Part shown: one piece after another, positions 9,952 through 31,337 of the stretch
Numbering within the stretch: the stretch's first letter is position 1
Layout: every line of letters starts with the position of its first letter
NCBI GenBank assembly: GCA_021713295.1
Contig: JAKJJU010000022.1
Span: 13,401-45,400 of the forward strand
Direction: 5' to 3'
DNA: 32,000 bases
Source: Thiotrichales bacterium 19S3-11
GTDB lineage: Bacteria; Pseudomonadota; Gammaproteobacteria; Francisellales; Francisellaceae
The notes under the pieces: model-generated
Databases searched by the model: none
Seen by the model: the letters and a program-made list of their open reading frames with translations, nothing else
What the model was told of the DNA's origin: nothing
Made by a program: the position numbers and the translations under genes

Positions 9952-10697
9952 GAGGATTATTATTTTTTGTTCTTTTAAGTATCTCAAGTATAAGCTTTGC
10001 AGCCTATGGGTCGAAAGGCTGGCATTGGTATGATATCAATGTCGATTACAGTGATGATGCACCAAAGGTAACACAACAAGTTATTGAAAAGCCGATTTCA
10101 TATAGTCAGCAATTAGAAGCCTTTCATCAGTATTACAACGAAGTTCAGGCAAAGGCAACGATTACGAATAATGTTAAGGATGTTGCGTATGCTGCTTTAT
10201 TACGTAAGTGGATTGTTGAAAACTCCATTAAAAATGGTCAGGCAATGAAAGAGGCGTTGCTTGAATATCCTCAATTATCAGCAAGCGTTAAAAACCCAAC
10301 AACGGATTTAGCGCGTCAACTTGTTTTTCATCAGAACCAAGAAAAAGAAGATCGAGCCATTAGAGAATTATCAAAATCATATGGCTTATTTTTCTTCTAC
10401 AAAGGCAAAGATATCTATGCCAATGCAATGGCTAAATCCGTTCAAGAATTTGCCGATGAATATGGTATTGCCTTAATTGGTTATCCAGTTGATGGTTATG
10501 CAATATCAGACATCAAAAATAATAAAGCGTACCACAATGAGATGACTGTTTTAGGGGTTAAGGCGTTACCTGCACTTTTTTTAGTCAATCCAAGAAAACG
10601 CCAAGCCTTGCCATTAACCTATGGCTTTGTCGCAGAAGATACCATTAAACAACACTACGTTGATATTGCCACTAACTTTGGAAAAAGAGAGATTTAA
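9948..10697 (+). CDS. traF: TraF, thioredoxin-fold periplasmic pilus-assembly protein lacking CXXC
   Basis: 249 aa with a signal peptide and the GWHWY motif near the N-terminus, as in F TraF. ATGA overlap with the traN stop. Confidence 0.85.
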   Translation: MRGLLFFVLLSISSISFAAYGSKGWHWYDINVDYSDDAPKVTQQVIEKPISYSQQLEAFHQYYNEVQAKATITNNVKDVAYAALLRKWIVENSIKNGQAMKEALLEYPQLSASVKNPTTDLARQLVFHQNQEKEDRAIRELSKSYGLFFFYKGKDIYANAMAKSVQEFADEYGIALIGYPVDGYAISDIKNNKAYHNEMTVLGVKALPALFLVNPRKRQALPLTYGFVAEDTIKQHYVDIATNFGKREI

Positions 10698-12675: not shown

Positions 12676-15492
12676 ATGTATGAGATTTGGGTAACCTCAC
12701 AAGCTGCGATTATGAAACATGTACTTGATGGTATTGCTGCTTTTTTTAATCGAGATGGTGGCTCATTAATGTTGTATGTGTCATCGGTCTTTGGCTTTTT
12801 AATTCTCATTGGTCGTTACATTATGAAGCCAAGTATTAAAGAGGTAATGATTTGGTTATCAATCTTAATGATCTTGCCTTTTGCTATGATTCAGTACAAA
12901 GATACAGCAAGAATCTATGATACGACTGACCCATTAGATATTTATACCGTTGATCACATACCATTTGGTTTGTTATTTCCGCTATCGATTATCACAAGCA
13001 CAATGCATTCAGTTATCAATACTGCCGAAGATGCACTTCATCAACCAAATGACCCAACCTATACAAAGACAGGGATGGTTTATGCCTCAAAATTATTTGA
13101 TGAAATGAAGTCATTAAAACCATCGGCTGCCTTATCTTCTGCGTGGTCAGAATTTATTTATCAATGTATCGACCCGAATGTGCGTGTTCGTAATCGTTAC
13201 ACCTATGATGATTTATTTAACGCGCCTGATATGATGACATTTTTGAAAGATCACACGCAAGATGGCTTTAATCGTGTGCATATTCCTTGGTTAGGGTCGC
13301 CAAGTTCAGAAACTTCGTGGCCTCGCTGCTTAACGGCATTAAATGCGATCGATGCTAAATATCAAAGTGAATTACCTCAATTTTATACAACGATGGGCGC
13401 ATATGACCCACTAAATAAAGTTAAAACATCAGTAGAAATTCAAAACGATATTAACGGTGTTTATGGATATTTCCTTGGTATTTCATCATCAGCACAAGAA
13501 AACATGATGCAAAACTTAATGATTAATGCCACTAAAAATGGCTTTAAAGATATTGCATCAAAGCATAATCAAACGGCTGCTGCATTTAATTATGCTTATA
13601 CACAAAATGAAATGTCCTCAATGGCTTCATGGGTGACAATTGGCATGATGGCAACGGAATATATACCAATGCTGCAAACGATCGTATTAATGATTCTTTG
13701 CTGTGCCTTTATTCCGATTACTTACCTTGCACTCATTCCAAGTTATACGATGCGCATATTAATTAAATACATTGAAAGTATCATTTGGGTAACAAGTTGG
13801 GGCTTATTTTATGTGTTTATCAACTTCATTATGACAAGTTTTATGAGCTATAGCGTTGATTCTTTTGTGGGTCAATGGCATGGCATTACGATGTCAAATT
13901 TAGATGCAACATCAGGTTTAATGTCTAAATATGCAGCATTAACAGGCTATTTTTTGATGTTTACACCTTATTTAGCAAGGTTAGTTGTATTAGGCGCAGC
14001 GAATACATTTAGTGGTTTAACGACTTCCTTACAATCAAATATTGCAGGTAATGCAGCAACAGGCTCACGAGTAGTCGCAACAGGTGATGTTCAAATAGGC
14101 AATACGAATGTTGCCAATCATAGTGCTAATAATGCTCATTTCAACAAGCAAGATTTTGATCATAACTTACGTTATGGTAATGAATCGATGTCAACGTTAA
14201 ACGGTGGTATGCAATCAGTCGATGCTCAAGGTAATCAATATCACGATAACCGTGTCTCTGGTTTGGCAACGCATCTTAGTCAATCAGAGGCAGTGGCACG
14301 AGGCTTTCAAAGAAGCATTGCCGAACATGAAAATAACGCATTTTCAGCAAATCAAAATGCGCAGCAATCTTGGAATGCAGCCTTAAATACACTATCAGGC
14401 GTTAATGAAAACGAAGCAATCAGAGCAAACTTACAAGCAAGTCATGGCACTAGTAATAGTATGAATACCGATCAAGCTTATGCAACGATGGTTGATTTGG
14501 CGCATCGTTATGGGAAAGACAAGAACGAATCTTTTAGCCATGGTCATACAACTAATGAAGGCATAAAAGGAAATATAGGAACTAGTAAAATTCCATTTTT
14601 AAGGATGTTAGGTGGTATTGACGCTCATGCTGGTATTGATTTTAATCAAAACTGGTCAAGCAGTAGTAGCAGTAGTAGCGGTATGTCAGTTCAAGATCAA
14701 GAAAACTATCGCAAAGCTCAATCCGTACTACAGAGTTCAACAAGATCAGAAATAGCATCAGCAGAAAAGCATTTAGGCGTTGATAAAAATCATTCTATTC
14801 AATCAAGCTTATCTGAAACGAAATCTTATTCTGAAACGGCAGCAAGAGAGCATCGCTTAGCTTTAGATGATCAAAAGGCAGCTAACTATGCGCAAAATGA
14901 AGGCGCATCTGTTCAATATAATGATATTCCTCAATTTGAATCTTGGTTAGCAAATAAAATAGGTGCAGTTGAAGCGAACAATTATCTTAATAGTCCTCAA
15001 TTACAAGGGAGTAGTGAATTTAAAGGCTATGTTAATCAATATGAGTCGATGGCATCAGAGAAATTTAAATCTGAATATGTGGCTAACCAAACAGGCATCA
15101 AAGATCAGTCAATGACTGATATTAATGCACAAGGCAATCAACAATTATCACAGGCTAGGGCATCTATAACAGAGCAAAATGCACAAAATAATAAAGTAGT
15201 TGATCAAAGCCATAAAGCAGATAAAGCTCAATTTACAAATAAAGTTCAACAATCACCTTACGGTAATCCATCATTCAACCCTGATAAGCCAGCAACCTTT
15301 AATCAGCAGAAGGTGATACCACCTAAGATGATTGTATCGGTTGATGAGCATGGCAAACGCTTAACAAAACAAACCGATGCTATTAGAGCAGAAGTAAAAG
15401 ATGAGGTCGGTACAAGTGAAAAATCTAAATTACAGCCAAGCGATAAATCAATATTAGAAGATTATCAAAAAACAAAAATGATGTTTATGTAG
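12676..15492 (+). CDS. traG: TraG, polytopic membrane protein for pilus assembly, mating-pair stabilisation and exclusion specificity
   Basis: 938 aa (as I recall, comparable in size to F TraG). Multi-TM N-terminal half and an N/Q/S-rich C-terminal half. Follows traH. Confidence 0.9.
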   Translation: MYEIWVTSQAAIMKHVLDGIAAFFNRDGGSLMLYVSSVFGFLILIGRYIMKPSIKEVMIWLSILMILPFAMIQYKDTARIYDTTDPLDIYTVDHIPFGLLFPLSIITSTMHSVINTAEDALHQPNDPTYTKTGMVYASKLFDEMKSLKPSAALSSAWSEFIYQCIDPNVRVRNRYTYDDLFNAPDMMTFLKDHTQDGFNRVHIPWLGSPSSETSWPRCLTALNAIDAKYQSELPQFYTTMGAYDPLNKVKTSVEIQNDINGVYGYFLGISSSAQENMMQNLMINATKNGFKDIASKHNQTAAAFNYAYTQNEMSSMASWVTIGMMATEYIPMLQTIVLMILCCAFIPITYLALIPSYTMRILIKYIESIIWVTSWGLFYVFINFIMTSFMSYSVDSFVGQWHGITMSNLDATSGLMSKYAALTGYFLMFTPYLARLVVLGAANTFSGLTTSLQSNIAGNAATGSRVVATGDVQIGNTNVANHSANNAHFNKQDFDHNLRYGNESMSTLNGGMQSVDAQGNQYHDNRVSGLATHLSQSEAVARGFQRSIAEHENNAFSANQNAQQSWNAALNTLSGVNENEAIRANLQASHGTSNSMNTDQAYATMVDLAHRYGKDKNESFSHGHTTNEGIKGNIGTSKIPFLRMLGGIDAHAGIDFNQNWSSSSSSSSGMSVQDQENYRKAQSVLQSSTRSEIASAEKHLGVDKNHSIQSSLSETKSYSETAAREHRLALDDQKAANYAQNEGASVQYNDIPQFESWLANKIGAVEANNYLNSPQLQGSSEFKGYVNQYESMASEKFKSEYVANQTGIKDQSMTDINAQGNQQLSQARASITEQNAQNNKVVDQSHKADKAQFTNKVQQSPYGNPSFNPDKPATFNQQKVIPPKMIVSVDEHGKRLTKQTDAIRAEVKDEVGTSEKSKLQPSDKSILEDYQKTKMMFM

Positions 15493-20061: not shown

Positions 20062-20177
20062 TCTTAAGGGGTATTTTTTTTGAAAATGAGTAGTAAAAAT
20101 TTACCTCCATAAATGAGCAATATGAGTTTTTCTCAATCGTGCTAATGCAATTGTTCATTTAAATTAACTCGTTGAAA

Positions 20178-20199
20178 TATGGCTATTTAAATAGCCATA
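20178..20199. repeat. Perfect 22-bp palindrome TATGGCTATTT/AAATAGCCATA in the traD-traI spacer
   Basis: Read directly. Lies 42 nt upstream of the traI ATG and is not followed by a T-tract. Probable protein-binding site or RNA structure. Confidence 0.6.
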
Positions 20200-20240
20200 G
20201 GCGAACTATGCCCAAAATTCAGTCAAAAAGGAGCATCATT

Positions 20241-23200
20241 ATGTTATCAATTGGCATTGTTACTTCATCAATGGATATACACAAATATTTCATCGATAAA
20301 GATAACTACTACTTAACCGATAAATCAGAGATTAAAGAATCATCACGATTTTATGGCAAAGGTGCTGAAGCTTTAGGCATTAAAGATAAGGTAGTTGAAG
20401 AAAAACTATTTTTAGATTTACTAGAAGGTCGATTGCCTAATGGTCAACAAATAGGTGTTAGCGGTAAAAGTCACAGGCCAGCAACCGATATTACCTTATC
20501 AGCGCCAAAGTCATTTTCAGTGATGGGCTTAATTGCTGGTGATGATCGCCTAAAGGATGTTCAAAGAAAAGCAGAAGAAAAAGTTTATAGTAAAATTGAG
20601 TCACTTTATGCAGAAGCTAGAAAAACGGTTAACGGAGTTACCTCTTATGAAAAGACAGGTAATTTAGTTATTGCCTTGTTTCCTCACTCATCATCAAGAG
20701 AGAAAGATGCTCAAATGCATACGCACGGTGTTATTTTAAATATGACTATGAGAAATGATGGACAGTGGCGCGCATTATCTTCAAGACAAAAGACTGATTT
20801 AATCAATATTGAGCATGGTTTTAGGGAATTAATTTATCAAAATCAGCATTACTTAGGCATGATTTATAATAGTGAGTTAGCCAAAGGTGCAATTGATTGT
20901 GGTTATGAGCTTGAAGTTTTAGACAAATATGGCAATTTCAAAATCAAAGGTTTATCGGATGAGTATTTAAAAAGCCAATCAAAAAGACGTGAACAAATTT
21001 TAGATATGGCGAAAGAAAAAGGTACAATGACACCTAAAGCTTTAAGTGCTTTCTCTAAAGCATCACGTAAAATTAAAGAGGCTGTTACACCTGATAAATT
21101 AAAAGAAGCATGGCAAGAAGATGCCAAAGCGCAAGGTGTTGATTTAAAAAAAGTGCTTGATCAGTCAATTCAGCGAGTTAATGATAAAGGCAATCAGCAT
21201 ACACAATCTGTATCAAGTTCATTACATAAAATCAGTCAAAATGCTAAAGAGGCAATTAATGATGCCATTACGCATTTATCGCAGTTTTCAGTTAAGTTGC
21301 AGCATGGCGATATTGTAAGACAAGCCTTTATTTTTGGTGGTGGTGTGATCAACCATGAAGAATTAGAACATATTATTGAAACCAAACAAAAACAACGAGA
21401 ATTAATTGGATTATCTGACCAATACTACACAACGAAAGCGTTAATTACAGAAGAAAAAGCATTTAAAACGGCAATGAAGCAAACAAAAGCTGTTTCATGG
21501 TCAAAAGATATTGCTCAATCTGGATTGATTGCTGAAAGTTTAAAAAGTAATGATCGTATACAGATTATCAATACCAAAGGCTTAAAAAATGAAACGAATC
21601 TAATCAATGATGCGGTAAGAATAGTAGAAGCAAACGGTTTAAATGCTTATGTTTTGCATCCGAATCAATCACGTCTAAATCTCTTAAAAGAAGATGTCAC
21701 AAGAGATAAAAAGAATATTTGGCAGTATTTTAAAAACTATTTTAAAGGTGATCTATTACAAACAACAGGTAAGTTTGAACATGAATATAAGGCTAGGTTA
21801 AATAGTCCGTTTAGGTCAAAGAAACAAGATATGATCTTTGTTACTGACAGTCAAAAACTGTCTTATGAAGGATTAAGTAAGCTTAATGATTTAGCCGAAA
21901 AAGGTAATGCTAAGCTGATTCTGTTAAATAACACGGAATCAACACAAGGTTTTAGAAGTGGTAACCCAATTAAAGTATTACGTTCATGTGGTGTTGCTGA
22001 ATATAACTCAAAGACAATTAAAAAAGAGGTCTTAGTTGAGATTACACAAGCCGTACAAACCAATAAATTATTAGCTGAACATTACACTTCAATTGATAGA
22101 GATAAACGCAATTTAATACCGATTGTTGCATCAACGAACAAAGCACAGACAGATTTAACGCATCTAATTCGCAATCATTTAAAAGATCAAGGCGAATTAT
22201 CCATTCAGGAATATAACTATCAAACTTTATCAACGAAAGGCTTAAGTGACACTGAAAAGAAATATTTAAAATGCTATTCAGTCGGTGATCTAATTACGTT
22301 AAAGCCATTCACTAAAGATCAACAAGCGTATCTTATCAGTGACATTGATAAGGAAAATAAAACCTTATCGCTTATTTCAATTAATGCTAAAGATAATAAA
22401 ACTTATCAGTTATCACACGATGATCTATTAAAAACAGAGTTTCAAATTAACAAAAAACAAACACTTTCAGTGTCAGTCAATGATCGTTTAATGGCGACTC
22501 GTAACCTTTATATTAAAGCTAACCATTTAAGCAATGAACGAGTTAAAATTGATAAAAATAGCGTTATTGAAGTTGAATCAATTGCTAAAGATGGCTTAAG
22601 AATTAAGCATAATGAGCAAAGTTTATGGCTTTCAAATGAAGCATTAAAAGCATCAATGCTTGATCATGGTTATGTCATTAAACCGCATCAATTAGACAAA
22701 GAATTTAATCAGGTGTTTACTTCATTATCTGGCTATCAAGTTAATCAAAATAGTATTGGTGAATTAAAAGAATATGCAAAAAATATTCATCTATTTACGG
22801 ATAACAAAGAGAAAGCATCAAAATCTTTAGATTCAGAAAATATTGTTTGGGTTGCAACTGATATAAAGGCTCTACAAAAAAACACCAGTTACAACCCAAC
22901 AGTAAGGAATGACTTGTCAATCGAAAAGGACTTACAAGTAGTAGCTAATGCCCTATCACATGGGTGTGTTAAATCAACAGAGAAAGGGCAATTAACCACT
23001 CCTAAAGATCATACAAAAACATTGCTTAATACACAAGATGATCACAATAATATTAATGCCGATGCACGCTCTAATCAAAGTGTCACCAAAGGAATAGATG
23101 TCGTGCATACGGCAGTTTCCTATGGTATCGCAAAGTTAAGTGAAAAAGAAGCTTCTTTTTCAATGGAAGATTTACTTAAAGAATCAATGACCTATGCATT

Positions 23201-26200
23201 AGGTTATACGACAGGTGATGAAATCGAAAAAGTCATTGATGAAAAGCGCGCTAACGGTGAGCTATTAATTAATGATCGTCACGTCACAACGAAAGCAATT
23301 TACGAACTTGAGAAATCAATTATTGATAATATAAGTGATGGTCACAATCAGGTTCAATCAGTTGTTAATGAGTTACCTAGTTTACGTGAAGGTCTCACTC
23401 AAGGTCAAAAAGATGCAATATCGCTGGCATTAACAACAAAAGATCGATTCATTGGCATTCAAGGTTTAGCTGGTACTGGTAAAACAACCATGATGAAAGA
23501 ATTAAGAGAAAAAGCTGAATCAAATGGCTATGAAATTGTTGGTATTGCACCAACACATAAGGCGGTTCAAATGTTAGATGGGTCAATGAATGAAAAATCA
23601 TCAGGTGAACGCTTTAGAAATGCTGGTATTCCAGTCATGACCGCACATGCCTTTATCAACCAAGAATTAGACAAATACAATGATAAAACGATCTTTATTA
23701 TTGATGAGTCTTCAATGATTGGTAACCGCTTATATCATGGCATCCAACAGAAGACAAAAAGCTTAAATGCTCGAACAATTTTTGCTGGTGATATCAAGCA
23801 ACAAGCTGCCATTGATCAAGGAAAACCGCAAGAGTTGAGCCTAAATAATGGCTTAAAATATGCCTCAATGAATGAAATTATACGTCAACGTAATAGTCCA
23901 GTTTTAAAGAAAAGTGCTGAGTTAGCTGCCAGTGGTAAGGCATCTGAATCATTAACTAATTTAGAAAAAATAAACCCATTTGATCATATCAAACGTAAAA
24001 ACTATTATGCTAGTTCAACTGAATCTTTCGTTGAAATTGCGCCTGATAAAGACACAAAAGGCAATGTAATTTTAGGTGATGATGACAAACCTAGGTATAA
24101 CAACCTATATCAAGCGATTGCTAATGATTACTTAACAAGAGTTACAGAGCAAAGAGGTCATACCGTTGTTATTGCTAAAACCCATAAATCACGTGCTGTC
24201 ATTGATGAAAAAATAAGAGATGGCTTAATCAAAGAAAGTGTGATACATAGCTCACAACCAGTAACAAGGCTTGCATCAAAAGATTTAGAAAAGGTTGATT
24301 TATTAATTGCTAAAAACTACGAGGTCAATGATATTATTAAGTTTGATCGTAGCTTTTCAATCGCTAAGAAGGGCGATTTAATGAAAGTAACTGATATTAA
24401 TAGTGCAGATAATAAGCTTACTATTTTCAATGAAAAAGATGGCAATACCTATACGATCAACCCTGCTAAATTAGCAACCAATGCTCAAATATCTCTTTAT
24501 CAGCAAGTTGATGCTAATTTAGGTATTGGTGATAGAGTTCGATTAAGAGTAAGTGATATTCCACGTGGTTTTACAGGTGGTCTTGAATACAAAGTTGAAG
24601 CAATTAAAGGCGACTATGCAACACTTAAAAATGACACAGATACCTTAAAAATCAACCTAAAGAATAGAGAAGATCAGATATGGGATTATGCCTATACCAA
24701 TACAACGTTTAGTGTTCAAGGTGATACCAAAAAATATGCAATTGGTCTTGAATTATTTGAAAATGATAGAGGAAACTACATTCAAATCACACGCGCTAGC
24801 GAACATGCAATTATCTATACTAGTAATAAGGCAAAGTTATTAACACAACTAGATGACGAGAAGGTTAAGTATGAAGCCAGCAAACGATCGGCGTATGAAC
24901 TCTTTGGTCAAAATAAAGAAAAAAATGCATCCAGCAAACAATCGGTATATGAATTCGTTAATCAAAAGAATGAAGACAAAAACCTTAAAATCCATGATCA
25001 AAAGGCTCAAGAAAGCCAGCCAGTTCATGAAAAGAAAACAAGTGAAATAACGCTAACTAAACCGAAAATCAAACCAGTTTTAGCAGATGATTTAAAGCCT
25101 CTTTTGAAAGAAAGATCAGAAGAATTAGCCATACATTTATTAGGTGAGCCTAATCAACAACTATCAAATCGTAGTCAATTAAGGTTCGGTCACAAAGGCT
25201 CATTATCAGTAACTATTTCAGGTCAGCATCAAGGAAAGTGGCGCAATTTTGAGACAGGCGAGCAAGGCAATGCTCTTGATTTAATTAAGGCAGAAATGAG
25301 CTATTCTAATTTTAAAGATGTCTTAAATTATGCTAAAAACTTCTTAAATTATGAGCCAACAAGTGAGCCAGTTAAGCAAGAATCAGTTGAGAAAGTAGCA
25401 AAAATTGATCTTGAAGAAACACAACGAAAAGAGAAAATGAAACAATATGCTACTAAATTATTTAACAATTCTAAGCCAATTAAAGGCACGCTAGCTGAAA
25501 AATATTTAAGCCAATCAAGAGGATTAAATAACTATCATAATGCCGATATTCGATTTTTACCTGCTATTTCTGGCTATGCTAAAAACAAAAAAACAGGTGA
25601 ATTTGACATTAAAGTCTATACACCAGCAGTCCTTGCATTTGCCAAAGATAAGGATAATCAAATTAACCATGTACAAGTGATTAGGCTTGATAGAGACGGT
25701 AATAAAAACAAAGAAGTTAAGATTGCTAAGCAAACCTATGGCTCAATGAATAGCTTTGCTGTTGAGTTAAATAACAAGGCAAATAAAGAAGTAACCTACC
25801 TTACAGAAGGCGTTGAAACGGGTTTATCAATCCTAAATGTTAATAAAAAAGCGGATGTTTTAGCTGTCTTAGGTAAGTCAAATTTTGCTAATATTGACCT
25901 AGAAAAGATAGCTGATAAGGTTATTTTGGCACTTGATAATGACGGTATTAGCAAAACTTTTTCTGATAAAACAATTGTAGATGCTGTCACACGATTACAA
26001 GAAAATGGTAAAGATGTACAAATCATTATGCCTGAAAAACCTAAGTCTGACTTTAACGATGTTTTAAAAAATGAAGGCTATCAAGCACTTTCAAAACAGA
26101 TTAATCAATCCTTATCAGCGAAAGATTTAAATCAAGTATCACTAAAATTAGCCAGTGATCATTTAATTAAATCTGAAAATATTACCTTAAATCAAGCTTT

Positions 26201-26435
26201 ATCTTTGATTGATAAAGACATTAAATATAAAGATTTTGATGCCCATAATAAAGTAAAAATCAATGATATTGATCACAAGTTACTTAAAAATATTGACCAA
26301 AATTATGCTATTAAAACTGATAAAAATCTTAATAAACAGATTGATACTGTCCTAAATGAGCAAGTTAAATATGATCAAATTGAAAATATTTTACCTGAAA
26401 AGACGCTTAAAATAGATAAGGAAATGGAACTTTAA
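20241..26435 (+). CDS. traI: TraI, MOBF relaxase-helicase with an additional C-terminal primase-like/Toprim module
   Basis: The start is moved to the ATG at 20241, 7 nt after AAGGAG (20228-20233). The N-terminus is co-linear with remembered F TraI: Y16, DKDNYY, LLEGRLPNG, HRPATDITLSAPKS, GNLVIALFPHSSSRE..AQMHTHGV. Helicase Walker A GLAGTGKTT (23463-23489) and FIIDESSM. C-terminal ~330 aa: RFGHKGSLSV..GKWRNFETGEQGNALDLI (cysteine-less primase finger-like), then Toprim YLTEGVETG and ALDNDG. Confidence 0.93.
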   Translation: MLSIGIVTSSMDIHKYFIDKDNYYLTDKSEIKESSRFYGKGAEALGIKDKVVEEKLFLDLLEGRLPNGQQIGVSGKSHRPATDITLSAPKSFSVMGLIAGDDRLKDVQRKAEEKVYSKIESLYAEARKTVNGVTSYEKTGNLVIALFPHSSSREKDAQMHTHGVILNMTMRNDGQWRALSSRQKTDLINIEHGFRELIYQNQHYLGMIYNSELAKGAIDCGYELEVLDKYGNFKIKGLSDEYLKSQSKRREQILDMAKEKGTMTPKALSAFSKASRKIKEAVTPDKLKEAWQEDAKAQGVDLKKVLDQSIQRVNDKGNQHTQSVSSSLHKISQNAKEAINDAITHLSQFSVKLQHGDIVRQAFIFGGGVINHEELEHIIETKQKQRELIGLSDQYYTTKALITEEKAFKTAMKQTKAVSWSKDIAQSGLIAESLKSNDRIQIINTKGLKNETNLINDAVRIVEANGLNAYVLHPNQSRLNLLKEDVTRDKKNIWQYFKNYFKGDLLQTTGKFEHEYKARLNSPFRSKKQDMIFVTDSQKLSYEGLSKLNDLAEKGNAKLILLNNTESTQGFRSGNPIKVLRSCGVAEYNSKTIKKEVLVEITQAVQTNKLLAEHYTSIDRDKRNLIPIVASTNKAQTDLTHLIRNHLKDQGELSIQEYNYQTLSTKGLSDTEKKYLKCYSVGDLITLKPFTKDQQAYLISDIDKENKTLSLISINAKDNKTYQLSHDDLLKTEFQINKKQTLSVSVNDRLMATRNLYIKANHLSNERVKIDKNSVIEVESIAKDGLRIKHNEQSLWLSNEALKASMLDHGYVIKPHQLDKEFNQVFTSLSGYQVNQNSIGELKEYAKNIHLFTDNKEKASKSLDSENIVWVATDIKALQKNTSYNPTVRNDLSIEKDLQVVANALSHGCVKSTEKGQLTTPKDHTKTLLNTQDDHNNINADARSNQSVTKGIDVVHTAVSYGIAKLSEKEASFSMEDLLKESMTYALGYTTGDEIEKVIDEKRANGELLINDRHVTTKAIYELEKSIIDNISDGHNQVQSVVNELPSLREGLTQGQKDAISLALTTKDRFIGIQGLAGTGKTTMMKELREKAESNGYEIVGIAPTHKAVQMLDGSMNEKSSGERFRNAGIPVMTAHAFINQELDKYNDKTIFIIDESSMIGNRLYHGIQQKTKSLNARTIFAGDIKQQAAIDQGKPQELSLNNGLKYASMNEIIRQRNSPVLKKSAELAASGKASESLTNLEKINPFDHIKRKNYYASSTESFVEIAPDKDTKGNVILGDDDKPRYNNLYQAIANDYLTRVTEQRGHTVVIAKTHKSRAVIDEKIRDGLIKESVIHSSQPVTRLASKDLEKVDLLIAKNYEVNDIIKFDRSFSIAKKGDLMKVTDINSADNKLTIFNEKDGNTYTINPAKLATNAQISLYQQVDANLGIGDRVRLRVSDIPRGFTGGLEYKVEAIKGDYATLKNDTDTLKINLKNREDQIWDYAYTNTTFSVQGDTKKYAIGLELFENDRGNYIQITRASEHAIIYTSNKAKLLTQLDDEKVKYEASKRSAYELFGQNKEKNASSKQSVYEFVNQKNEDKNLKIHDQKAQESQPVHEKKTSEITLTKPKIKPVLADDLKPLLKERSEELAIHLLGEPNQQLSNRSQLRFGHKGSLSVTISGQHQGKWRNFETGEQGNALDLIKAEMSYSNFKDVLNYAKNFLNYEPTSEPVKQESVEKVAKIDLEETQRKEKMKQYATKLFNNSKPIKGTLAEKYLSQSRGLNNYHNADIRFLPAISGYAKNKKTGEFDIKVYTPAVLAFAKDKDNQINHVQVIRLDRDGNKNKEVKIAKQTYGSMNSFAVELNNKANKEVTYLTEGVETGLSILNVNKKADVLAVLGKSNFANIDLEKIADKVILALDNDGISKTFSDKTIVDAVTRLQENGKDVQIIMPEKPKSDFNDVLKNEGYQALSKQINQSLSAKDLNQVSLKLASDHLIKSENITLNQALSLIDKDIKYKDFDAHNKVKINDIDHKLLKNIDQNYAIKTDKNLNKQIDTVLNEQVKYDQIENILPEKTLKIDKEMEL

Positions 26436-26758
26436 GCACTCTGCATACCTTCAATATAAGCATCAGAATTTGACTCAATCATATGAATTAATGTCTTAGC
26501 ATCAAAAAAATTACCTGTTGTTTTACTACGTTCAAAAACGCAATTTAGAATTTCTTTAGCAAGGTAATTGTTCTCTAGCACCATCTTTACAATTGGGTCT
26601 TCTACTTTTTCATCTGCTTTTTTAGTGCTAGCTTCATGAACTTTTAAGCCTAATTCAATCATATCAATGGCAAAATTTAGTTGTCCCTTCTCATCAGAAT
26701 TACAACTTTCTTGAATTTTTTGCCATATATTTGTGCCAATATCTAATGTTATTTCCAT
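26432..26758 (-). CDS. traM: TraM-like relaxosome accessory / signalling protein
   Basis: 108 aa. ITLDIGTNIWQKI....AIDMIELGLKVHEAS parallels remembered F TraM VNLYISNDAYEKI....ASMLLELGLRVHEAQ. It lies next to the predicted oriT. Confidence 0.6.
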   Translation of the reverse strand: MEITLDIGTNIWQKIQESCNSDEKGQLNFAIDMIELGLKVHEASTKKADEKVEDPIVKMVLENNYLAKEILNCVFERSKTTGNFFDAKTLIHMIESNSDAYIEGMQSA

Positions 26759-27225
26759 CTATTTTTGTCCTTTTCAATTGGTATTGTTTTCATATTTCTA
26801 TGATTTATTGAGCAATGAAGTGTATCATAATTGTAAGTTTGAAATGCTCCATATGTATTTTTAAGTGTCTCATCAACCGATGATTTTACTACATTGAATA
26901 ATTGCTTATTGTCATTTCTAGCGTATATTAATTCTTGTGTATAGTTAGATACAATTTGCATATCACAAGCCATATTTGGAATACTAACATGAATCTGTTC
27001 TAGCATTTTTTTCATCTTTAAGATTTCAGAATTAAGATCAATTTTTTTATCGTTTGATTGTGATTCTTGATCATTCATTCTTTCGCGAATTAATAATTTC
27101 ATTGCACTTGTTAATAATGGTTTTGAGTTAACATTAAATAAATTATTTTCAATTGCTAACTTTTCTAAAAATGTTTTTTCCTCTCTAGTTAATCGAATCG
27201 AAGTAGGTGGTATTTTGTTATCCAA
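26749..27225 (-). CDS. Ribbon-helix-helix DNA-binding protein; candidate TraY-like relaxosome accessory factor / autoregulator
   Basis: TTG start at 27225, 8 nt after AAGGA. The N-terminus TSIRLTREEKTFLEKLAIEN has the beta-strand/helix pattern of RHH proteins (compare F TraY LTMRLDDETNQLLIAAKN). It is the first gene next to the palindrome array and overlaps the traM-like gene by 10 nt. Confidence 0.55.
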   Translation of the reverse strand: MDNKIPPTSIRLTREEKTFLEKLAIENNLFNVNSKPLLTSAMKLLIRERMNDQESQSNDKKIDLNSEILKMKKMLEQIHVSIPNMACDMQIVSNYTQELIYARNDNKQLFNVVKSSVDETLKNTYGAFQTYNYDTLHCSINHRNMKTIPIEKDKNRWK

Positions 27226-27260
27226 AGTTCATATCCTTTTATCAAAATTGAAAAATCAAA

Positions 27261-27516
27261 GTATCACAATGTGATGCACTATTATATTTTATCGTATCAC
27301 AATGTGATGCGCAATACATTTCACTTATTTTTAAAAATATAAATCACATATAAAATATATAGTTAAATGTGTATCACAATGTAATAATTTGTATTGCTAT
27401 GTGATGCGCTTTGAGTTAGTTCTGTCATACTCATGTAATACTTTATGTATCACAATGTAATCTATTGAGATAATTAACTAATTTATATACGTTTTATTAA
27501 TATTACTCTGTGATAC
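27261..27516. promoter_or_regulatory. Operator array: repeated 13-bp palindrome ATCACA-A-TGTGAT within GTATCACAATGTGATGC
   Basis: Two perfect 17-mers at 27261-27277 and 27294-27310 (33-bp spacing). Variants at 27371-27385, 27391-27407 and 27447-27461. Half-sites at 27423-27430, 27434-27441 and 27509-27516. Confidence 0.8.
27286..27314 (-). promoter_or_regulatory. Sigma70-type promoter for the RHH/traM operon
   Basis: On the minus strand: -35 TTGCGC (27314-27309), 17-nt spacer, -10 TAAAAT (27291-27286). The spacer is filled by palindrome copy 2, and copy 1 lies just downstream of the predicted start. This is an autorepression-like layout. Confidence 0.55.
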
Positions 27517-27601
27517 AAGATTATCTGTATATTATTTAAACATTTTAAAGTATTTAAAATAAGCTAAAATCTATGATATATATAGTCTTTTTTGAATAAA
27601 C

Positions 27602-27726
27602 AAAGGCAAAATCAATTGCGTGATGTGTGGGTGCTTTCTCTCGGTATCAGGTAATGTTAAATTCTAATGCGTATCCTCTGGAATCTTTAAAGGCTTCGTT
27701 TGCCAACTGAACACAAAAGGCAAAAT
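27602..27726 (+). other. oriT: oriT core with predicted nic site (T27628|G27629) on the + strand
   Basis: 27616-27637 TTGCGTGATGTGTGGGTGCTTT compared with remembered F TTTGCGTGGGGTGT|GGTGCTTT and R100 TTTGCGTAGTGTGT|GGTGCTTT. Flanked by an 11-bp direct repeat AAAGGCAAAAT (27602-27612 and 27716-27726) and an inverted TTTGCC (27699-27704). Confidence 0.7.
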
Positions 27727-27742
27727 TTCTACGCCGATTGAG

Positions 27743-28054
27743 TGAAAATTAATAATACAAATATCTCAACTTTTGAAAACTTAAAATTCAAAAAAATGTA
27801 TCATCTAAATTTTGAAAATAACAAAAATAGATAACTTAAAAATGATCAATTTGAACAAACTGAATTTTGATTTTTTGCTTATTCTTAATTTTTAAAATTA
27901 ACCCATTTTTGAAAATTACAGGGACGATATTTTAACAATTTATAACTATCAAAATCGCTAAAATTAAAATCATAGCTATTGAAGAATTTGAAAATCTTAA
28001 TGAAAACTTAAATGCAAATGACAACCACCTAAAATGCAACCTCGATGTGAAAAT
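27743..28054 (+). repeat. Seven same-orientation TGAAAAY heptamers (mostly TTTGAAAAT) in the first ~430 nt after the predicted nic
   Basis: Copies at 27743, 27774, 27813, 27910, 27989, 28001 and 28048. My rough base-composition estimate gives well under one copy expected by chance. Confidence 0.6.
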
Positions 28055-28144
28055 CCCCCTGCTTTGGTTGGTGCTTTTAGTCCAGCTAAAATATTATTTT
28101 ATATACTTCTTTAAATATTATTATATTTATTTTTTTAAATAGTT

Positions 28145-28369
28145 TTAAAATTCTTTCTCACTGACCTTTGAGAAAACTGATTTTTTCTCTTGCTCAAACT
28201 CAAACAAATAATGATCTAACTCTTTCTTAGTTTGAAATCTTTTAAGAACAGTATAAGCAACACCTAAACCTTGGACGTCTTCCATAAAAATATATTCACC
28301 ATCTTCTCTATCAATGACGTAATACTCAAACTTTTTTTCATCTCTGTTAATAATACTTAGTTTAACCAT
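28145..28369 (-). CDS. Hypothetical 74-aa acidic protein, second gene of the J-domain operon
   Basis: ATG at 28369, 9 nt after AGGA and 11 nt after the J-domain gene stop. No recognisable domain. Confidence 0.5.
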   Translation of the reverse strand: MVKLSIINRDEKKFEYYVIDREDGEYIFMEDVQGLGVAYTVLKRFQTKKELDHYLFEFEQEKKSVFSKVSEKEF

Positions 28370-28380
28370 TTTTATAATCC

Positions 28381-28884
28381 TTAAATAGCTTCTAAATAAT
28401 TTTTATTTTCATTCATTTTTGTACTATTAAATTTCTCTCTTATTTCCTCCATACTCCACTCTTGATTATTATTTCTATGTTTTTTGCCTTTGGCTTGTTC
28501 AGGACGATAAAACCACATTTGCTTTTTTCTTGCCCATTTAAAACCAGCCTGTTTAATTATTTCTTTATGTGCTTTAGTCTCACCTGACAGCCACACCCAT
28601 AACCCACATATTTCTATAACAATACCAGTTAAATTTTTAACGGCATTTAACGCTGTGTTTAAAATTTCTGGGTATTCTGTCATTTGAATATTTTCAAAAA
28701 CTTCGATTTCTTCAATATCTTTTAAAATTTCATAAGCACAATTAATTACTTTCATCATTTCAATACCTGCTGGGTTTCTATCAGGATGAAATTCTTTTAC
28801 TTTTAATCGATAAGATTTTTTAATATCACTAGCTGTAACCTTTCCTTGTAAACCTAAAATTAATGCAGCTTCAAACTTGTTCAT
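28381..28884 (-). CDS. J-domain (DnaJ-like, HPD motif) protein with a W-rich basic C-terminal domain
   Basis: The start is moved to the ATG at 28884, 6 nt after AGAGG. J-domain helices II/III flank the HPD motif (ASDIKKSYRLKVKEFHPDRNP...MMKVINCAYEILKD). No Gly/Phe or zinc-finger regions. The C-terminus reads GLWVWLSGETKAHKEIIKQAGFKWARKKQMWFY. Confidence 0.8.
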   Translation of the reverse strand: MNKFEAALILGLQGKVTASDIKKSYRLKVKEFHPDRNPAGIEMMKVINCAYEILKDIEEIEVFENIQMTEYPEILNTALNAVKNLTGIVIEICGLWVWLSGETKAHKEIIKQAGFKWARKKQMWFYRPEQAKGKKHRNNNQEWSMEEIREKFNSTKMNENKNYLEAI

Positions 28885-28925
28885 TTTCAACCTCTATGTT
28901 ATTTTATTTTGTGTTGCCACACTTC

Positions 28926-29015
28926 CTTTTTGAACAAGCCATATGCGAATCTTTGAAAGGGTGGCTTGCCACTTGCGTAGCCCTTGCAAAGATGAGTGTG
29001 CTTGTTATAAAAAAG
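28926..29015. promoter_or_regulatory. Imperfect ~90-nt hairpin carrying -35 TTGCAA / -10 TATAAA; candidate Frpo-like single-strand promoter (and a rightward dsDNA promoter)
   Basis: Hand-paired stems: 28926-31/29010-15, 28933-39/29000-06, 28949-55/28987-93 and 28957-61/28981-85 (25 bp). There is an internal loop in the spacer and a 3-nt bulge inside the -10. -35 at 28984-28989, 16-nt spacer, -10 at 29006-29011. Confidence 0.5.
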
Positions 29016-29086
29016 ACATATTAATTAGTCGCTTACGACACAATCCTTTGTTGGCTTAAACGGTGTTAATCAGCGTTCTAATTAGC

Positions 29087-29104
29087 TTTGTACACGTGTA
29101 CAAA
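29087..29104. promoter_or_regulatory. Perfect 18-bp palindrome TTTGTACAC/GTGTACAAA upstream of the ParB-like gene (parS-like or operator)
   Basis: Read directly. It shares the CACGTG core and T/A-rich arms with the chromosomal parS consensus TGTTTCACGTGAAACA. It lies 17 nt upstream of a candidate -35 TTGATT (29121-29126), with -10 TAAATT (29144-29149). Confidence 0.55.
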
Positions 29105-29192
29105 ATTACTTTTATTACAGTTGATTGTTATTTTAAATGATGTTAAATTGAATTTATATTTAAGTATTTAATTCAATATATTAAGGAAGAAT

Positions 29193-29948
29193 ATGGATAT
29201 TATCGAAATCAATCCCCAACTTTGTAAACGTTGGCAATTTGCTGACCGATCTAACTTTGAATTTGGCGATACTCTCAAACTCGGTACTGACATCAAAAAC
29301 AACGGTCAAGTTGAGCCTGTTATTGTCAGAAAATCAAATGATTCTAAATTTAAGTATGAGGTAATTGCTGGTAGCCGTCGTCATCGAGCTTGTCTTGAAA
29401 CTGACATACTAATGAAAGCTATCGTTAAAAATATCTCTGATCAAGAAGCTTTCTTTATGCAGCTTAGGGAAAATGAGAAGCAACCTATTTCAGACTATTC
29501 ACGTGGAATGAATTTCAAAAAATTAATTGATAGCGGAAAATCAACAGTTGAAGAGTTGTCAAAAATCAATCAATGCTCAAAAGAGAAAATATATCACCTA
29601 CTCTCATTTGCAAGCGTACCAACACAAATATGGGATGCTGTTGCTAACATGAGCAAAGTCTCTTGTCGTTCTGCTAGTACAATCAATGCCCTTGCTAAAA
29701 AAGGTGATCAATACGTCAGTGCTTTAATTGATATTGCAGAAGAAATCAGAAAAGGCGCTGGGAGCAGAAAAATTGAAAACTTAGTTAATACCATAGTCAA
29801 CGGTGAGCAAAAAATTGATGACCAAAGACAAATTGTATCTAAAGAGGGTAATGTGATTGGTAAGTGGGTTAAAAATACAATTGTTTTTGACAAATCTTTT
29901 ACAGTAAACCAAAAAGATATTGAAGATTTATTAACCGAGTATCTTTAA
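29193..29948 (+). CDS. ParB/Srx-fold N-terminal domain protein (orphan ParB-like; no ParA in the window)
   Basis: AAGGAAG RBS. VEPVIVRK....YEVIAGSRRHRAC is the ParB box II / arginine-patch pattern (GxRRxRA). A probable HTH follows (STVEELSKINQCSKEKIYHLL). Confidence 0.75.
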   Translation: MDIIEINPQLCKRWQFADRSNFEFGDTLKLGTDIKNNGQVEPVIVRKSNDSKFKYEVIAGSRRHRACLETDILMKAIVKNISDQEAFFMQLRENEKQPISDYSRGMNFKKLIDSGKSTVEELSKINQCSKEKIYHLLSFASVPTQIWDAVANMSKVSCRSASTINALAKKGDQYVSALIDIAEEIRKGAGSRKIENLVNTIVNGEQKIDDQRQIVSKEGNVIGKWVKNTIVFDKSFTVNQKDIEDLLTEYL

Positions 29949-30106
29949 AAACAAGCACAGTAATTCCACCCGTGGCATCATTTCTCTCTCTATTCTTTTA
30001 AGTACTGTGCCTGTACTTGCATACTAAGTTAATATCTATATGATATCAATCGTGTTATTCATATATTTTCATGATATATTTACTGTATATTTTTGGATTT
30101 AAGCTC

Positions 30107-30322
30107 ATGATTAGACTTGAAACTAACAAACGCTACTATTTAATTAACTTGACCAAAGATTTATTTGATCAGTGGTGTGTTGTTTGTACATGGGGTTCTA
30201 AGCTATCAAGATTAGGAAATCAACAAACTCATCTGGTAGACAATGAAATATCAGGTCAAAGCCTAATTGCAAAAATCATTAAAACTCGCAAGAGTCATGG
30301 CTATGAAATTATCGAAGATTAG
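30107..30322 (+). CDS. Small WGR-domain-like protein
   Basis: KRYYLINLTKDLFDQWCVVCTWGSKLSRLGNQQTH....AKIIKTRKSHGYEI follows the WGR-domain pattern (rYY.l.l..dLFg.w.v.r.WGRiG..G.......K.k.GY). The start is uncertain: 30071 in the track, or the ATG at 30107. Confidence 0.5.
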   Translation: MIRLETNKRYYLINLTKDLFDQWCVVCTWGSKLSRLGNQQTHLVDNEISGQSLIAKIIKTRKSHGYEIIED

Positions 30323-30383
30323 TACATTAGTTCGTTAAATAATGTTATAATATAACCAACTGTTTTACTTTAAATTTATTACT

Positions 30384-31337
30384 ATGATTGTTAGAAAAAA
30401 TAACACAGACGTTAACAAGCCAAAGTACGACCAATACTTTAAATTCAATTTAGAAAAAAAAGAAATTGCCGAGGAAATTATCAGGTCTGTTTTACCTAAA
30501 GAATTAATTGAGTTTGCTGATTTCTCAAAAATGAAGCTTGAACAAAGTGAACATATTGATGAAGAGCTAAGAAAATTAATTACTGACGTGCTTTGGAGTA
30601 TACCAATTAAAGGCGAAAAGGCTTATATATACATCCTTGCAGAACACGAAAGTAGCCTTAAAAATCATCACTTACTACCTTTTAGGTTTCATAAGTATAT
30701 GATTCGTATTATGGAAAAGCACATTGCTAAAGGTAATAAAAAGTTACCTATTGTCATACCCGTGTTGTTTTATCATGGTGCAAAACAAGGATACCCTCAC
30801 AGCCTATCAATCTTTAATTGCTTTGAAGATAAAGAGCTTGCAAAAAAATATGCATTCCAAGATATCACATTAGTTGACCTTACCGTCCTAGATGAAAAAG
30901 AAATTGCTCTACAAGGATTTCGATTTTTCTTTCAATTGGTGTTAAAATATTCAAGAGACAAAGAATTAGCCAAACGATTAGTAGATATACTAGAAAAATA
31001 CCCTAATCTGGCAAATTATTTTGATGGTAAAGACTTTAAAGATGCATTTGTTCAATTATTAATGAGTTTAGATTTAGACTCTAAACATACTGCTAGAGAA
31101 ACTTTAAAGAAATTAGATGATTTAACTGGAGCTGATATTATGACGCTACGTGAACAATGGGAAGCTAAGGCTACTAAAAAAGGTGTTAAACAAGGGCGTA
31201 TTCAAGAAAAACAGGAAACGGCTAGGAATATGTTGGCTAAAGGTTTAGATACTAAATTGGTTGCCGATTGTACTGGTCTTGAACTTGAGACTGTTCTTGA
31301 GCTTAAGAAAGATGTTGATAATCAGAAGAAAAGATAA
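30384..31337 (+). CDS. Rpn-family (YhgA-like) PD-(D/E)XK recombination-promoting nuclease / 'putative transposase'
   Basis: FKFNLEKKEIAEEIIRSVLP...ITDVLWSIPIKGEKAYIYILAEHESS...LLPFRFHKYM...LPIVIPVLFYHG is the characteristic Rpn N-terminal nuclease core. It has the repeated helical C-terminal tail. Preceded by an extended -10, TGtTATAAT, at 30343-30351. Confidence 0.8.
   Translation: MIVRKNNTDVNKPKYDQYFKFNLEKKEIAEEIIRSVLPKELIEFADFSKMKLEQSEHIDEELRKLITDVLWSIPIKGEKAYIYILAEHESSLKNHHLLPFRFHKYMIRIMEKHIAKGNKKLPIVIPVLFYHGAKQGYPHSLSIFNCFEDKELAKKYAFQDITLVDLTVLDEKEIALQGFRFFFQLVLKYSRDKELAKRLVDILEKYPNLANYFDGKDFKDAFVQLLMSLDLDSKHTARETLKKLDDLTGADIMTLREQWEAKATKKGVKQGRIQEKQETARNMLAKGLDTKLVADCTGLELETVLELKKDVDNQKKR

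Follow-up and report, generated by a model that had tools for sequence, protein, structure and literature searches.

The stretch analyzed here, referred to as the window, comprises 32,000 nucleotides (nt) of contig JAKJJU010000022.1 from Thiotrichales bacterium 19S3-11 (positions 13,401 to 45,400 of a 50.9-kb source contig with a G+C content of 34%), and the coordinates given below are positions in this window. Transfer genes and a relaxase-helicase gene on the + strand are followed by a TraM-like gene and a 158-amino acid (aa) open reading frame (ORF) on the - strand, a 900-bp non-coding region with a predicted origin of transfer (oriT), a - strand operon of two genes, a hairpin and a divergent + strand gene. 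The first gene of the operon (28381-28895, - strand, stop codon included) encodes a J-domain protein (Pfam DnaJ, E=1.8e-12), with its ATG at 28884 and a ribosome-binding site (RBS), AGAGG, at 28891-28895, and an identical protein is annotated for this place on the source contig; the second, taken from the ORF list, is a 74-aa ORF without a family match (28145-28369, - strand). The divergent gene encodes a ParB_N-domain protein (29193-29948, + strand). Our subject is the interrupted hairpin that lies between the J-domain and ParB-like genes, at 28926-29015 on the + strand, which the initial annotation had taken for a promoter that fires the J-domain operon from the incoming single-stranded DNA (ssDNA) during conjugation. 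Expression and priming from incoming ssDNA decide the establishment of a plasmid in a new host.

When folded with DNA parameters, the + strand of 28920-29022 has this single interrupted hairpin as its minimum free energy (MFE) structure. As the initial annotation had claimed, the 3' arm carries TTGCAA (28984-28989, + strand) and, 16 nt further on, TATAAA (29006-29011). In the MFE pair list the -35-like hexamer is paired at five of its six bases, G28986 being unpaired, and the spacer holds an internal loop (28942-28948 facing 28994-28995). The -10-like hexamer is of the extended type, TGT-TATAAA (29003-29011, + strand), with the TGn at 29003-29005. T29006 is paired with A28933, and A29010 and A29011 are paired as well, while A29007, T29008 and A29009 are bulged opposite G28932, which is the ATA bulge described before and leaves unpaired the key second-position A of the -10, the base that sigma-70 flips out. 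Compared with the sigma-70 consensus, TTGCAA matches at 4/6 and TATAAA at 5/6 positions, with the A at position 2 and the TGn present and the T at position 6 (T6) absent; a strict sigma-70 scan does not list this pair of hexamers because the final T is missing, and the pair passes once the T6 requirement is relaxed. The 141-nt region has a folding energy of -21.2 kcal/mol on the + strand (z -3.50; none of 200 shuffles as stable), and the hairpin ranks in the top 0.28% of all 100-nt windows in the 32 kb. In hairpin form the hexamers of the 3' arm point into the J-domain operon, and the geometry proposed earlier holds: RNA polymerase would copy the 5' arm and leave it near 28923, passing through a small 4-bp hairpin just outside the 5' base (GTGTTGCCACAC, 28911-28922, + strand) and the RBS to the ATG at 28884. 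This small hairpin, which has a counterpart at the matching position in the related locus L010 (see below) and in many other loci, would form the 5'-terminal stem-loop of the predicted RNA, or would stop a primer.

The tip of the hairpin (28957-28986, + strand) consists of AAGGG, a small hairpin TGGCTTGCCA and CTTGCGTAGCCCTTG, and includes the mini-hairpin sequence GCGTAGC at 28975-28981. Using the pattern AAGGGN{9,13}CTTGCGNAGCCCTTG, we found matches in at least 120 metagenome contigs and in 6 IMG/VR contigs, the sources being gut, sludge, soil and freshwater metagenomes. Among 108 instances with full context there are at least 66 distinct flank families, with G+C contents from 30% to 78%; the family-wide counts given below rest on the matches listed. 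The core is nearly always embedded in long arms that differ in sequence and are complementary to each other, so that the architecture of the family is a three-part tip (AAGGG, small hairpin, CTTGCGNAGCCCTTG) on sequence-variable, complementary arms. We aligned 56 representatives, leaving out the window and L010. Paired cells make up 64% of this alignment versus 51% in shuffles, and its covariation score is 0.352, versus 0.156 in shuffles (reached by 0 of 500) and 0.13-0.16, at most 0.158, when the pairing partners were slid; both sides have changed in 30 of the 36 pairs. The small apical hairpin is 88% paired and covaries in all 5 of its pairs, and the outer arm columns are degraded by indels. 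A covariance model built from this alignment (R1) matches the window at 28927-29016 on the + strand only (48.1 bits, E=1e-10), and matches nowhere else in the window or on the remainder of the contig. Judged from sequence, the hairpin is a member of a widespread and so far uncatalogued family. No Rfam 15 family matched the hairpin in the window or at nine family loci at the gathering score, and at E<=10 chance matches of the snoRNA and microRNA type were all that appeared; the ssDNA-candidate motifs DUF1874, ARRPOF, GEBRO and PAGEV (Weinberg 2017) are all Rfam families and are covered by this null result. A full-text literature search for the core sequence returned no paper. The consensus core was found in two uncultured rat-gut plasmids only in PLSDB, as chance partial matches only in the phage collection, and not at all in complete E. 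coli genomes; searches of PLSDB with the window itself (megablast with 26400-30400, blastn with 28895-29045) gave nothing useful.

The family also shows strand specificity. The reverse strand scores 40-50 bits lower with R1, the main helix contains 81 G.T pairs on the motif strand versus 41 on the complement, and in 46 of 65 families the motif strand folds more stably than its complement (p=3e-4). The G.T asymmetry and the R1 strand scores therefore suggest that the functional form is a single strand of the polarity of the motif, i.e., the + strand in the window. As for whether this strand folds as DNA or as RNA, the tip contains GCGTAGC in the window, the consensus has GCGAAGC, mostly in two copies, and 24 of 66 families have a C(GNA)G triloop in the small apical hairpin; GCGNAGC and C(GNA)G triloops may point to DNA rather than RNA folding, which we take as a lead and not as a test.

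The strongest local evidence for an ssDNA promoter appears to be the replacement of a canonical promoter at the J-domain gene. The nearest homologues of the J-domain protein are 55-60% identical. Five loci that carry J-domain homologues and not the motif (L009, L011, L144, L145 and L146) have a duplex promoter TTGAC[ATG]-16/17-nATnAT 40-91 nt upstream of the gene, with 9-11 of 12 matches, followed in L009, L011, L144 and L146 by a small hairpin and an RBS. In the window and in L010, whose J-domain gene is 57% identical to that of the window, no qualifying sigma-70-like duplex promoter is present within 200 nt upstream of the J-domain gene on the coding strand; the duplex J-domain operon is therefore without an obvious nearby promoter, in agreement with the initial annotation, which had found no convincing one. 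Instead, L010 has the hairpin upstream of the gene in the same orientation, with arms unrelated to those in the window and a nearly identical tip, and its 3' arm carries TTGTCA-16-TAAGCT with the TAA, including the second base of the -10, unpaired. When the window is aligned with the J-domain homologues, the tip of the motif sits at the position of the -35 and spacer, and the window retains a degenerate -10 CATATG (compared with CATACT and GATAAT) and the downstream GGCTTGTTCA block. A search of genome contigs with the J-domain protein returned distant Chloroflexi relatives only, none of them with the motif. More generally, homologues of this protein (~47% identity) occur on 2696 PLSDB plasmids, 2209 of which are conjugative, and on the IncX1 plasmid pMAS2027 the J gene has a leading-region position, being located upstream of oriT-ddp1-relaxase and transcribed in their direction. 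The J-domain genes look like an unstudied and widespread leading-region family.

The strand on which the hairpin lies is also the predicted transferred strand (T strand). A motif resembling the nic site of F, TTGCGTGATGTGTGGGTGCTTT, lies at 27616-27637 on the + strand, the F sequence being TTGCGTGGGGTGT^GGTGCTTT; two substitutions and an inserted base separate it from the 21-nt F core, and it is the sole match in the window, with one match across 100 whole-window shuffles. In F, whose layout we checked, the nic sequence is on the strand that serves as the template for traM and the leading-region genes. By the same logic, the nic motif on the + strand implies that the + strand is the T strand and that the leading region extends rightward from ~27632; the + strand transfer predicted by the initial annotation is therefore well supported by the motif, with cleavage at this site likewise predicted. 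The hairpin lies ~1.3 kb 3' of the nic motif, i.e., within the predicted leading region. The TraM-like gene (26432-26758, - strand) matches Pfam Tra_M weakly, with 24.9 bits (E=2.2e-5) where the cutoff is 27.7 bits, and it shares its template strand with the J-domain operon, as do traM and the leading genes in F. Adjoining it are five direct repeats GTATCACAATGTGATGC (27261-27468, + strand), which are candidate TraM-binding (sbm-like) sites of oriT and resemble F-type arrays. The relaxase-helicase (20172-26435, + strand, 2087 aa) is of the TrwC type (E=5.5e-66), so that a nic-region motif, a TrwC-family relaxase, a weak Tra_M match and five direct repeats are found together, as in F-like oriTs of the MOBF class. 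The C-terminus of the relaxase carries a fused DUF7146 and Toprim_3 primase module, and the T strand could be primed in the recipient by the relaxase itself.

Several other features of this region may be recorded here. The nic-core 9-mer GGTGCTTTT is found once more on the same strand, at 28070-28078, ~440 nt 3' of the nic motif; this second copy could be a secondary nick or termination site, or due to chance. From the nic motif to the first leading-region ORF (27640-28145) there are ~500 bp of very AT-rich non-coding DNA with many short direct and inverted repeats. The gap between the coupling-protein and relaxase genes contains a hairpin pair (20106-20205) that, at -17.6 kcal/mol per 100 nt, is the third most stable structure in the window. 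The structure of the other leading-region intergenic stretches of the source contig is not unusual (z ~-1.8 to -2.8). Past the right end of the window (L001 1-314), on the leading side, the source contig has a ~135-nt tandem duplication upstream of a GGDEF-domain gene.

Promoter-like signals are found across the family as well. TTGNNN always lies directly 3' of the core, and in about half of the families it is TTGAC. The -10 signal, by comparison, is present in a subset of the families only. TA occurs at offsets 19-20 past the core, corresponding to spacers of 16-17 nt, in 16 of 66 families, versus ~2.5 per offset elsewhere. In 12 of 66 families, TGnTA, as in an extended -10, stands at offsets 18-21 on the motif strand, whereas 1.2 are expected (Poisson p ~6e-9) and the mirror strand has 4 of 66; kinship among these 12 families, which include the window and L010, reduces them to ~8 independent ones. 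An automated analysis of the stem ends was too noisy to place the -10 of the family. Within 100 nt past the 5' base, 14 of 61 families have a gene on the complementary strand that is preceded by a Shine-Dalgarno sequence and starts at a distance of 16-74 nt, compared with 6 of 58 for the mirror geometry. The genes past the 5' base are mutually unrelated (J-domain and HNH proteins and DUF7706 twice each, a DprA-like and a PDDEXK_3 protein once each), a picture that suits a generic initiation module better than a gene-specific regulator.

The link of the family to ssDNA replicons is clear but not exclusive, and on small rolling-circle plasmids and inovirus-like genomes the motif usually has the sense of the Rep gene. 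The motif is on the same strand as the Rep gene on a 1.9-kb Rep_trans circle (L037), a 4.4-kb circle with a G2P-type Rep (L081), and two further replicons with Rep_1 (L088) and a G2P-type Rep (L108), and it is on the same strand as the relaxase gene on a Mob_Pre element (L022). In an inovirus-like genome encoding a Zot-like protein, a virion (coat) protein and a rolling-circle Rep (L089), it is intergenic and on the same strand as all the genes; in Ff-type phages the coding strand is the packaged strand, which corresponds to the motif strand in L089. A RepL plasmid (L139) carries two copies, one per orientation. The recurring neighbors are mostly genes of mobile elements, namely, transposases, integrases, RepL and Rep_trans, which suggests that the family is a portable module of such elements. 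Simple ORF strand counts around the members were uninformative, as GC-rich contigs give spurious ORFs on both strands.

Taking these observations together, we favor the reading that the hairpin is an RNA-polymerase entry site active on ssDNA, similar to Frpo in function and not in ancestry, which points into the J-domain operon, and we give it a probability of about 50%. We infer that RNA polymerase recognizes the element, that it starts near 28923 and that the RNA is used as a messenger; a priming role of the type known from single-strand origins (sso) and single-strand initiation sites (ssi) has at least as much support as mRNA synthesis. The element would be active when its own strand is single-stranded. 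Its folded arms would then rebuild a duplex -35, i.e., the TTGNNN right 3' of the tip, and a duplex spacer, while the -10 on the 3' arm would be partly unpaired and resemble an already opened promoter, at which the host RNA polymerase could initiate and move outward, copying the 5' arm. The RNA made in this way would prime synthesis of the complementary strand on rolling-circle plasmids and filamentous phages. On the present plasmid, RNA starting at ~28923 would include first the small 5' hairpin, next the RBS, and then the J-domain gene with the 74-aa ORF, providing expression of the operon, local priming, or both, before the plasmid becomes double-stranded, and expression would fall after the hairpin is absorbed into duplex DNA. 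A wider proposal is possible, and we put it forward tentatively: the family could be a new, phylum-spanning ssDNA initiation signal, a further type of sso or ssDNA promoter, whose conserved tip with its mini-hairpin is read by a universal host factor (RNA polymerase or primase) and which is shared as a portable module by rolling-circle plasmids, filamentous phages and conjugative plasmids, and which here replaces the promoter of the J-domain operon, limiting its expression to the single-stranded phase. The initial annotation had further suggested that the element switches target genes once the DNA becomes double-stranded, with the duplex-form hexamers (28984-29011) pointing toward the ParB-like gene; this switch is speculative, and the ParB-like gene has promoter-like sites nearer than the hairpin, at 29132-29160 and 29153-29182.

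A number of results weigh against this reading. At the locus itself, both strands form a stable fold with DNA parameters, the - strand being as stable as the + strand (-21.6 kcal/mol, z -3.43, 0 of 200 shuffles), so that energy alone does not discriminate between the strands; the -10 lacks its conserved final T; and a promoter-like - strand site, TTTACA-18-GATAAT at 29228-29199, could serve the J-domain operon in duplex DNA, in an AT-rich region whose promoter-like sites are near chance frequency (10 found, 6.1 +/- 2.8 expected). Family-wide, TTGAC is also present on the mirror strand because it is part of a covarying near-palindromic stem, GTCAAGGG...CCCTTGAC, and by a -10 position weight matrix the motif strand scores only marginally better than the mirror strand (p=0.09), the positional TGnTA signal being the clearer of the two. 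Conservation of the core is in part by construction, because the search pattern fixed the core sequence; diverged extra copies found by R1 still keep GCTTGCGNAGCCCTTG. The motif strand is opposite to Rep on a RepL plasmid (L125) and on a RepB-type circle (L086), and many members have no obvious ssDNA stage, including those in the divergent region of a tailed phage (L138), on a Rep3 theta plasmid (L140) and at chromosomal-looking loci. In ~18 contigs (L016, L023, L045, L074 and ~14 more) an IS256-family (Transposase_mut) gene is followed, 90-130 nt beyond its stop codon, by the motif on the other strand; there it may be part of the end of the insertion sequence (IS) or a preferred insertion target, and an ssDNA stage is not suggested for these elements. 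On the 2.2-kb RepL plasmid L139, the two copies (1317-1407, - strand; 2137-2227, + strand) point outward and flank one ORF, an integrase fragment, and in L044 two opposite, outward-pointing copies (10104-10194, - strand; 10557-10649, + strand) likewise flank a single ORF; none of the explanations offered here accounts for this arrangement. It is mainly on account of the contexts without an ssDNA stage, above all the link to IS256-type elements, that our confidence is moderate.

Among the alternatives, the one that survives best is that the hairpin is a signal for priming only, with the primer made by RNA polymerase or by the relaxase-fused primase, and that the J-domain operon is expressed later from a duplex promoter. 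The members on rolling-circle plasmids and inovirus-like genomes lend it weight, since the RNA would be antisense to the genes of these replicons and could serve there as a primer only. At the present locus, the small hairpin right after the predicted start could stop a primer, the relaxase has DUF7146 and Toprim_3 domains, and the - strand site at 29228-29199 is a candidate duplex promoter. However, the motif sits exactly at the promoter position of the J-domain homologues with no duplex promoter within 200 nt, 14 of 61 families have a gene start with a Shine-Dalgarno sequence on the complementary strand, 16-74 nt past the 5' base, and priming at 1.3 kb from the 5' end would lead to the copying of that short stretch alone. 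Moreover, the two roles are compatible, Frpo having both (PMC11541004). We therefore regard a role in priming to the exclusion of mRNA synthesis as unlikely, while giving it more weight than any other alternative. An RNA element on the forward strand, acting in a rightward transcript, seems to us rather more doubtful; examples would be a 5' untranslated region of the ParB-like mRNA or an element that stabilizes it, a small RNA, and an insulator or terminator carried by mobile elements. The strand asymmetry would fit RNA no less than ssDNA, rolling-circle replicons have the motif on their mRNA-sense strand, many contexts are without an ssDNA stage, and a weak rightward promoter, TTGTTC-17-TATTTT, lies at 28879-28907. 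But the apical loops, mostly C(GNA)G triloops together with GCGNAGC, are typical of DNA mini-hairpins, a scan of the region found no T-run after the hairpin and no terminator-like site, and no family in Rfam 15 matched; in addition, the mutually unrelated neighboring genes argue against a gene-specific cis-regulator, and the position-specific TGnTA signal would be left without explanation.

We consider it quite improbable that the locus is a duplex control region in which TTGCAA-16-TATAAA serves the ParB-like gene as an ordinary promoter and a protein binds the inverted repeat as an operator for the divergent genes. It is true that the hexamers, with their TGn, point to the ParB_N gene in duplex DNA, that operators are common in divergent intergenic regions, and that a perfect palindrome is nearby. 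Operators, however, conserve arm sequence and not pairing, whereas here the arms covary and are imperfect and bulged, and the tip alone is conserved across 66 contexts without a common neighboring regulator; the ParB-like gene also has the nearer promoter-like sites given above, and gene starts on the same strand past the 3' base are rare in the family (6 of 58). Least probable of all is a passenger hairpin, i.e., a mobile or insertion-target palindrome (for instance, of the IS256 type) without a plasmid function and with coincidental hexamers, as the motif is found at equivalent positions and identically oriented upstream of the J-domain genes of both the window and L010, where its arm sequences are unrelated and a canonical promoter is absent, arm covariation implies selection on the fold and no transposase adjoins the motif in the window, even though the motif lies close to IS256-family transposase genes in ~18 contigs, some loci are multi-copy in both orientations and promoter-like hexamers are common in such AT-rich DNA.

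Several known classes of element were also considered and rejected. An integron attC site is conserved at its ends, not at its tip; an intrinsic terminator would have a T-run after the hairpin; a ParB parS site or an operator would have conserved arms, not covarying ones; and as for a repetitive extragenic palindrome or a miniature inverted-repeat transposable element, the family spans phyla with the tip alone in common. The palindrome mentioned above, TTTGTACACGTGTACAAA, is a perfect 18-bp one between the hairpin and the ParB_N gene (29087-29104), and a half-site-like copy, CTTTGTAAACGT, lies just inside this gene (29220-29231); the two are candidates for an operator or a parS-like site of the ParB-like protein.

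To our knowledge, the ssDNA signals described so far are few and defined by sequence, namely, Frpo on enterobacterial plasmids, the sso types on Firmicute plasmids and the Ff minus origin. The element described here is a compact motif of ~90 nt that can be searched for by a covariance model. If it is an entry site for RNA polymerase or primase, it would offer a handle on the leading regions and transferred strands of uncultured plasmids, it would extend the concept of the ssDNA promoter well past Enterobacteria, and one portable module would serve plasmids, phages and conjugative elements alike. The apparent swap of a canonical promoter for a hairpin at the J-domain gene bears on the question of whether leading genes fire only in the single-stranded phase.

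The known elements that the hairpin calls to mind first are Frpo and the ssi sites, represented by ssiD of F and Frpo1-3 of ColIb-P9. Like them, it is a hairpin on the (predicted) T strand in a (predicted) leading region, its 3', non-template arm bears a -35 and a partly unpaired -10, the T strand is the template for the leading genes downstream, and a burst of expression, priming, or both would be expected before conversion to duplex. It differs from them in its length, ~90 nt compared with the ~330 nt of the GC-rich Frpo (sequences from PMC11541004), in its AT-rich host and the J-domain gene downstream, where the others have ssb, psiB or ardA, and in its conserved three-part tip, which Frpo does not have. 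A blastn-short comparison of 28850-29100 with ssiD and ssiE of F and Frpo1 of ColIb gave chance words of 7-9 nt only (E>=0.6), and R1 had no match in the leading region of F (50-68 kb). The Frpo/ssi design put forward by the initial annotation accordingly holds for the predicted T-strand position in the leading region and for the stem-loop with a mismatched -10, and does not hold for length or sequence homology: the comparison with the F and ColIb-P9 sequences showed no similarity. Samuel et al. reportedly called Frpo/ssi homologues by BLAST at E<1e-6. We use "Frpo-like" as a functional analogy only, because there is no sequence relation and the lengths, ~90 and ~330 nt, differ.

The minus origin of M13 and f1 consists of two promoter-mimicking hairpins, B and C, on the packaged strand, at which the sigma-70 RNA polymerase makes the primer. 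The motif in the inovirus-like genome L089 is similar to it in being intergenic and on the coding strand, and unlike it in being a single hairpin with a conserved tip; with filters off, the best R1 match in M13 has 7.2 bits (E>1). Mini-hairpins of the type GCGNAGC / GCGNNAGC are extraordinarily stable in DNA and are found at G4 oric, RSF1010 ssiA and the promoters of the N4 virion RNA polymerase (vRNAP), where they resist SSB and mark entry sites of primases and polymerases (PMC13037366). The tip of the family shares GCGNAGC with these sites (GCGTAGC in the window), while the sites themselves are recognized by DnaG, RepB' or the N4 polymerase and have other overall architectures.

Elements primed by RNA polymerase have established precedents in the sso elements (PMC5703833) and in Frpo (PMC11541004). 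The sso of type A (ssoA) is defined by RSB (5'-TTTATGCCGAGAAAA) and CS-6 (5'-TAGCGT/A) within a folded region of ~160 nt (PMC6395029); no RSB TTTATGCCGAGAAAA was found near the hairpin within 3 mismatches, and no TAGCG in 28926-29016. With filters off, R1 gave nothing above 9 bits in pE194, pT181 and pUB110, with a best score of 8.3 bits (E>1) in pUB110. Unlike these elements, the hairpin in the window is located in a conjugative leading region and upstream of a gene, and is without RSB and CS-6. On the other hand, ssoA, ssoU, ssoT, ssoW as well as ssoL are, like the members of the present family, folded ssDNA elements that are orientation-specific, and they are recognized by the host RNA polymerase. 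They are also exchangeable across Rep families, and similarly the new family occurs on replicons of the Rep_trans, Rep_1, RepB, RepL and G2P types.

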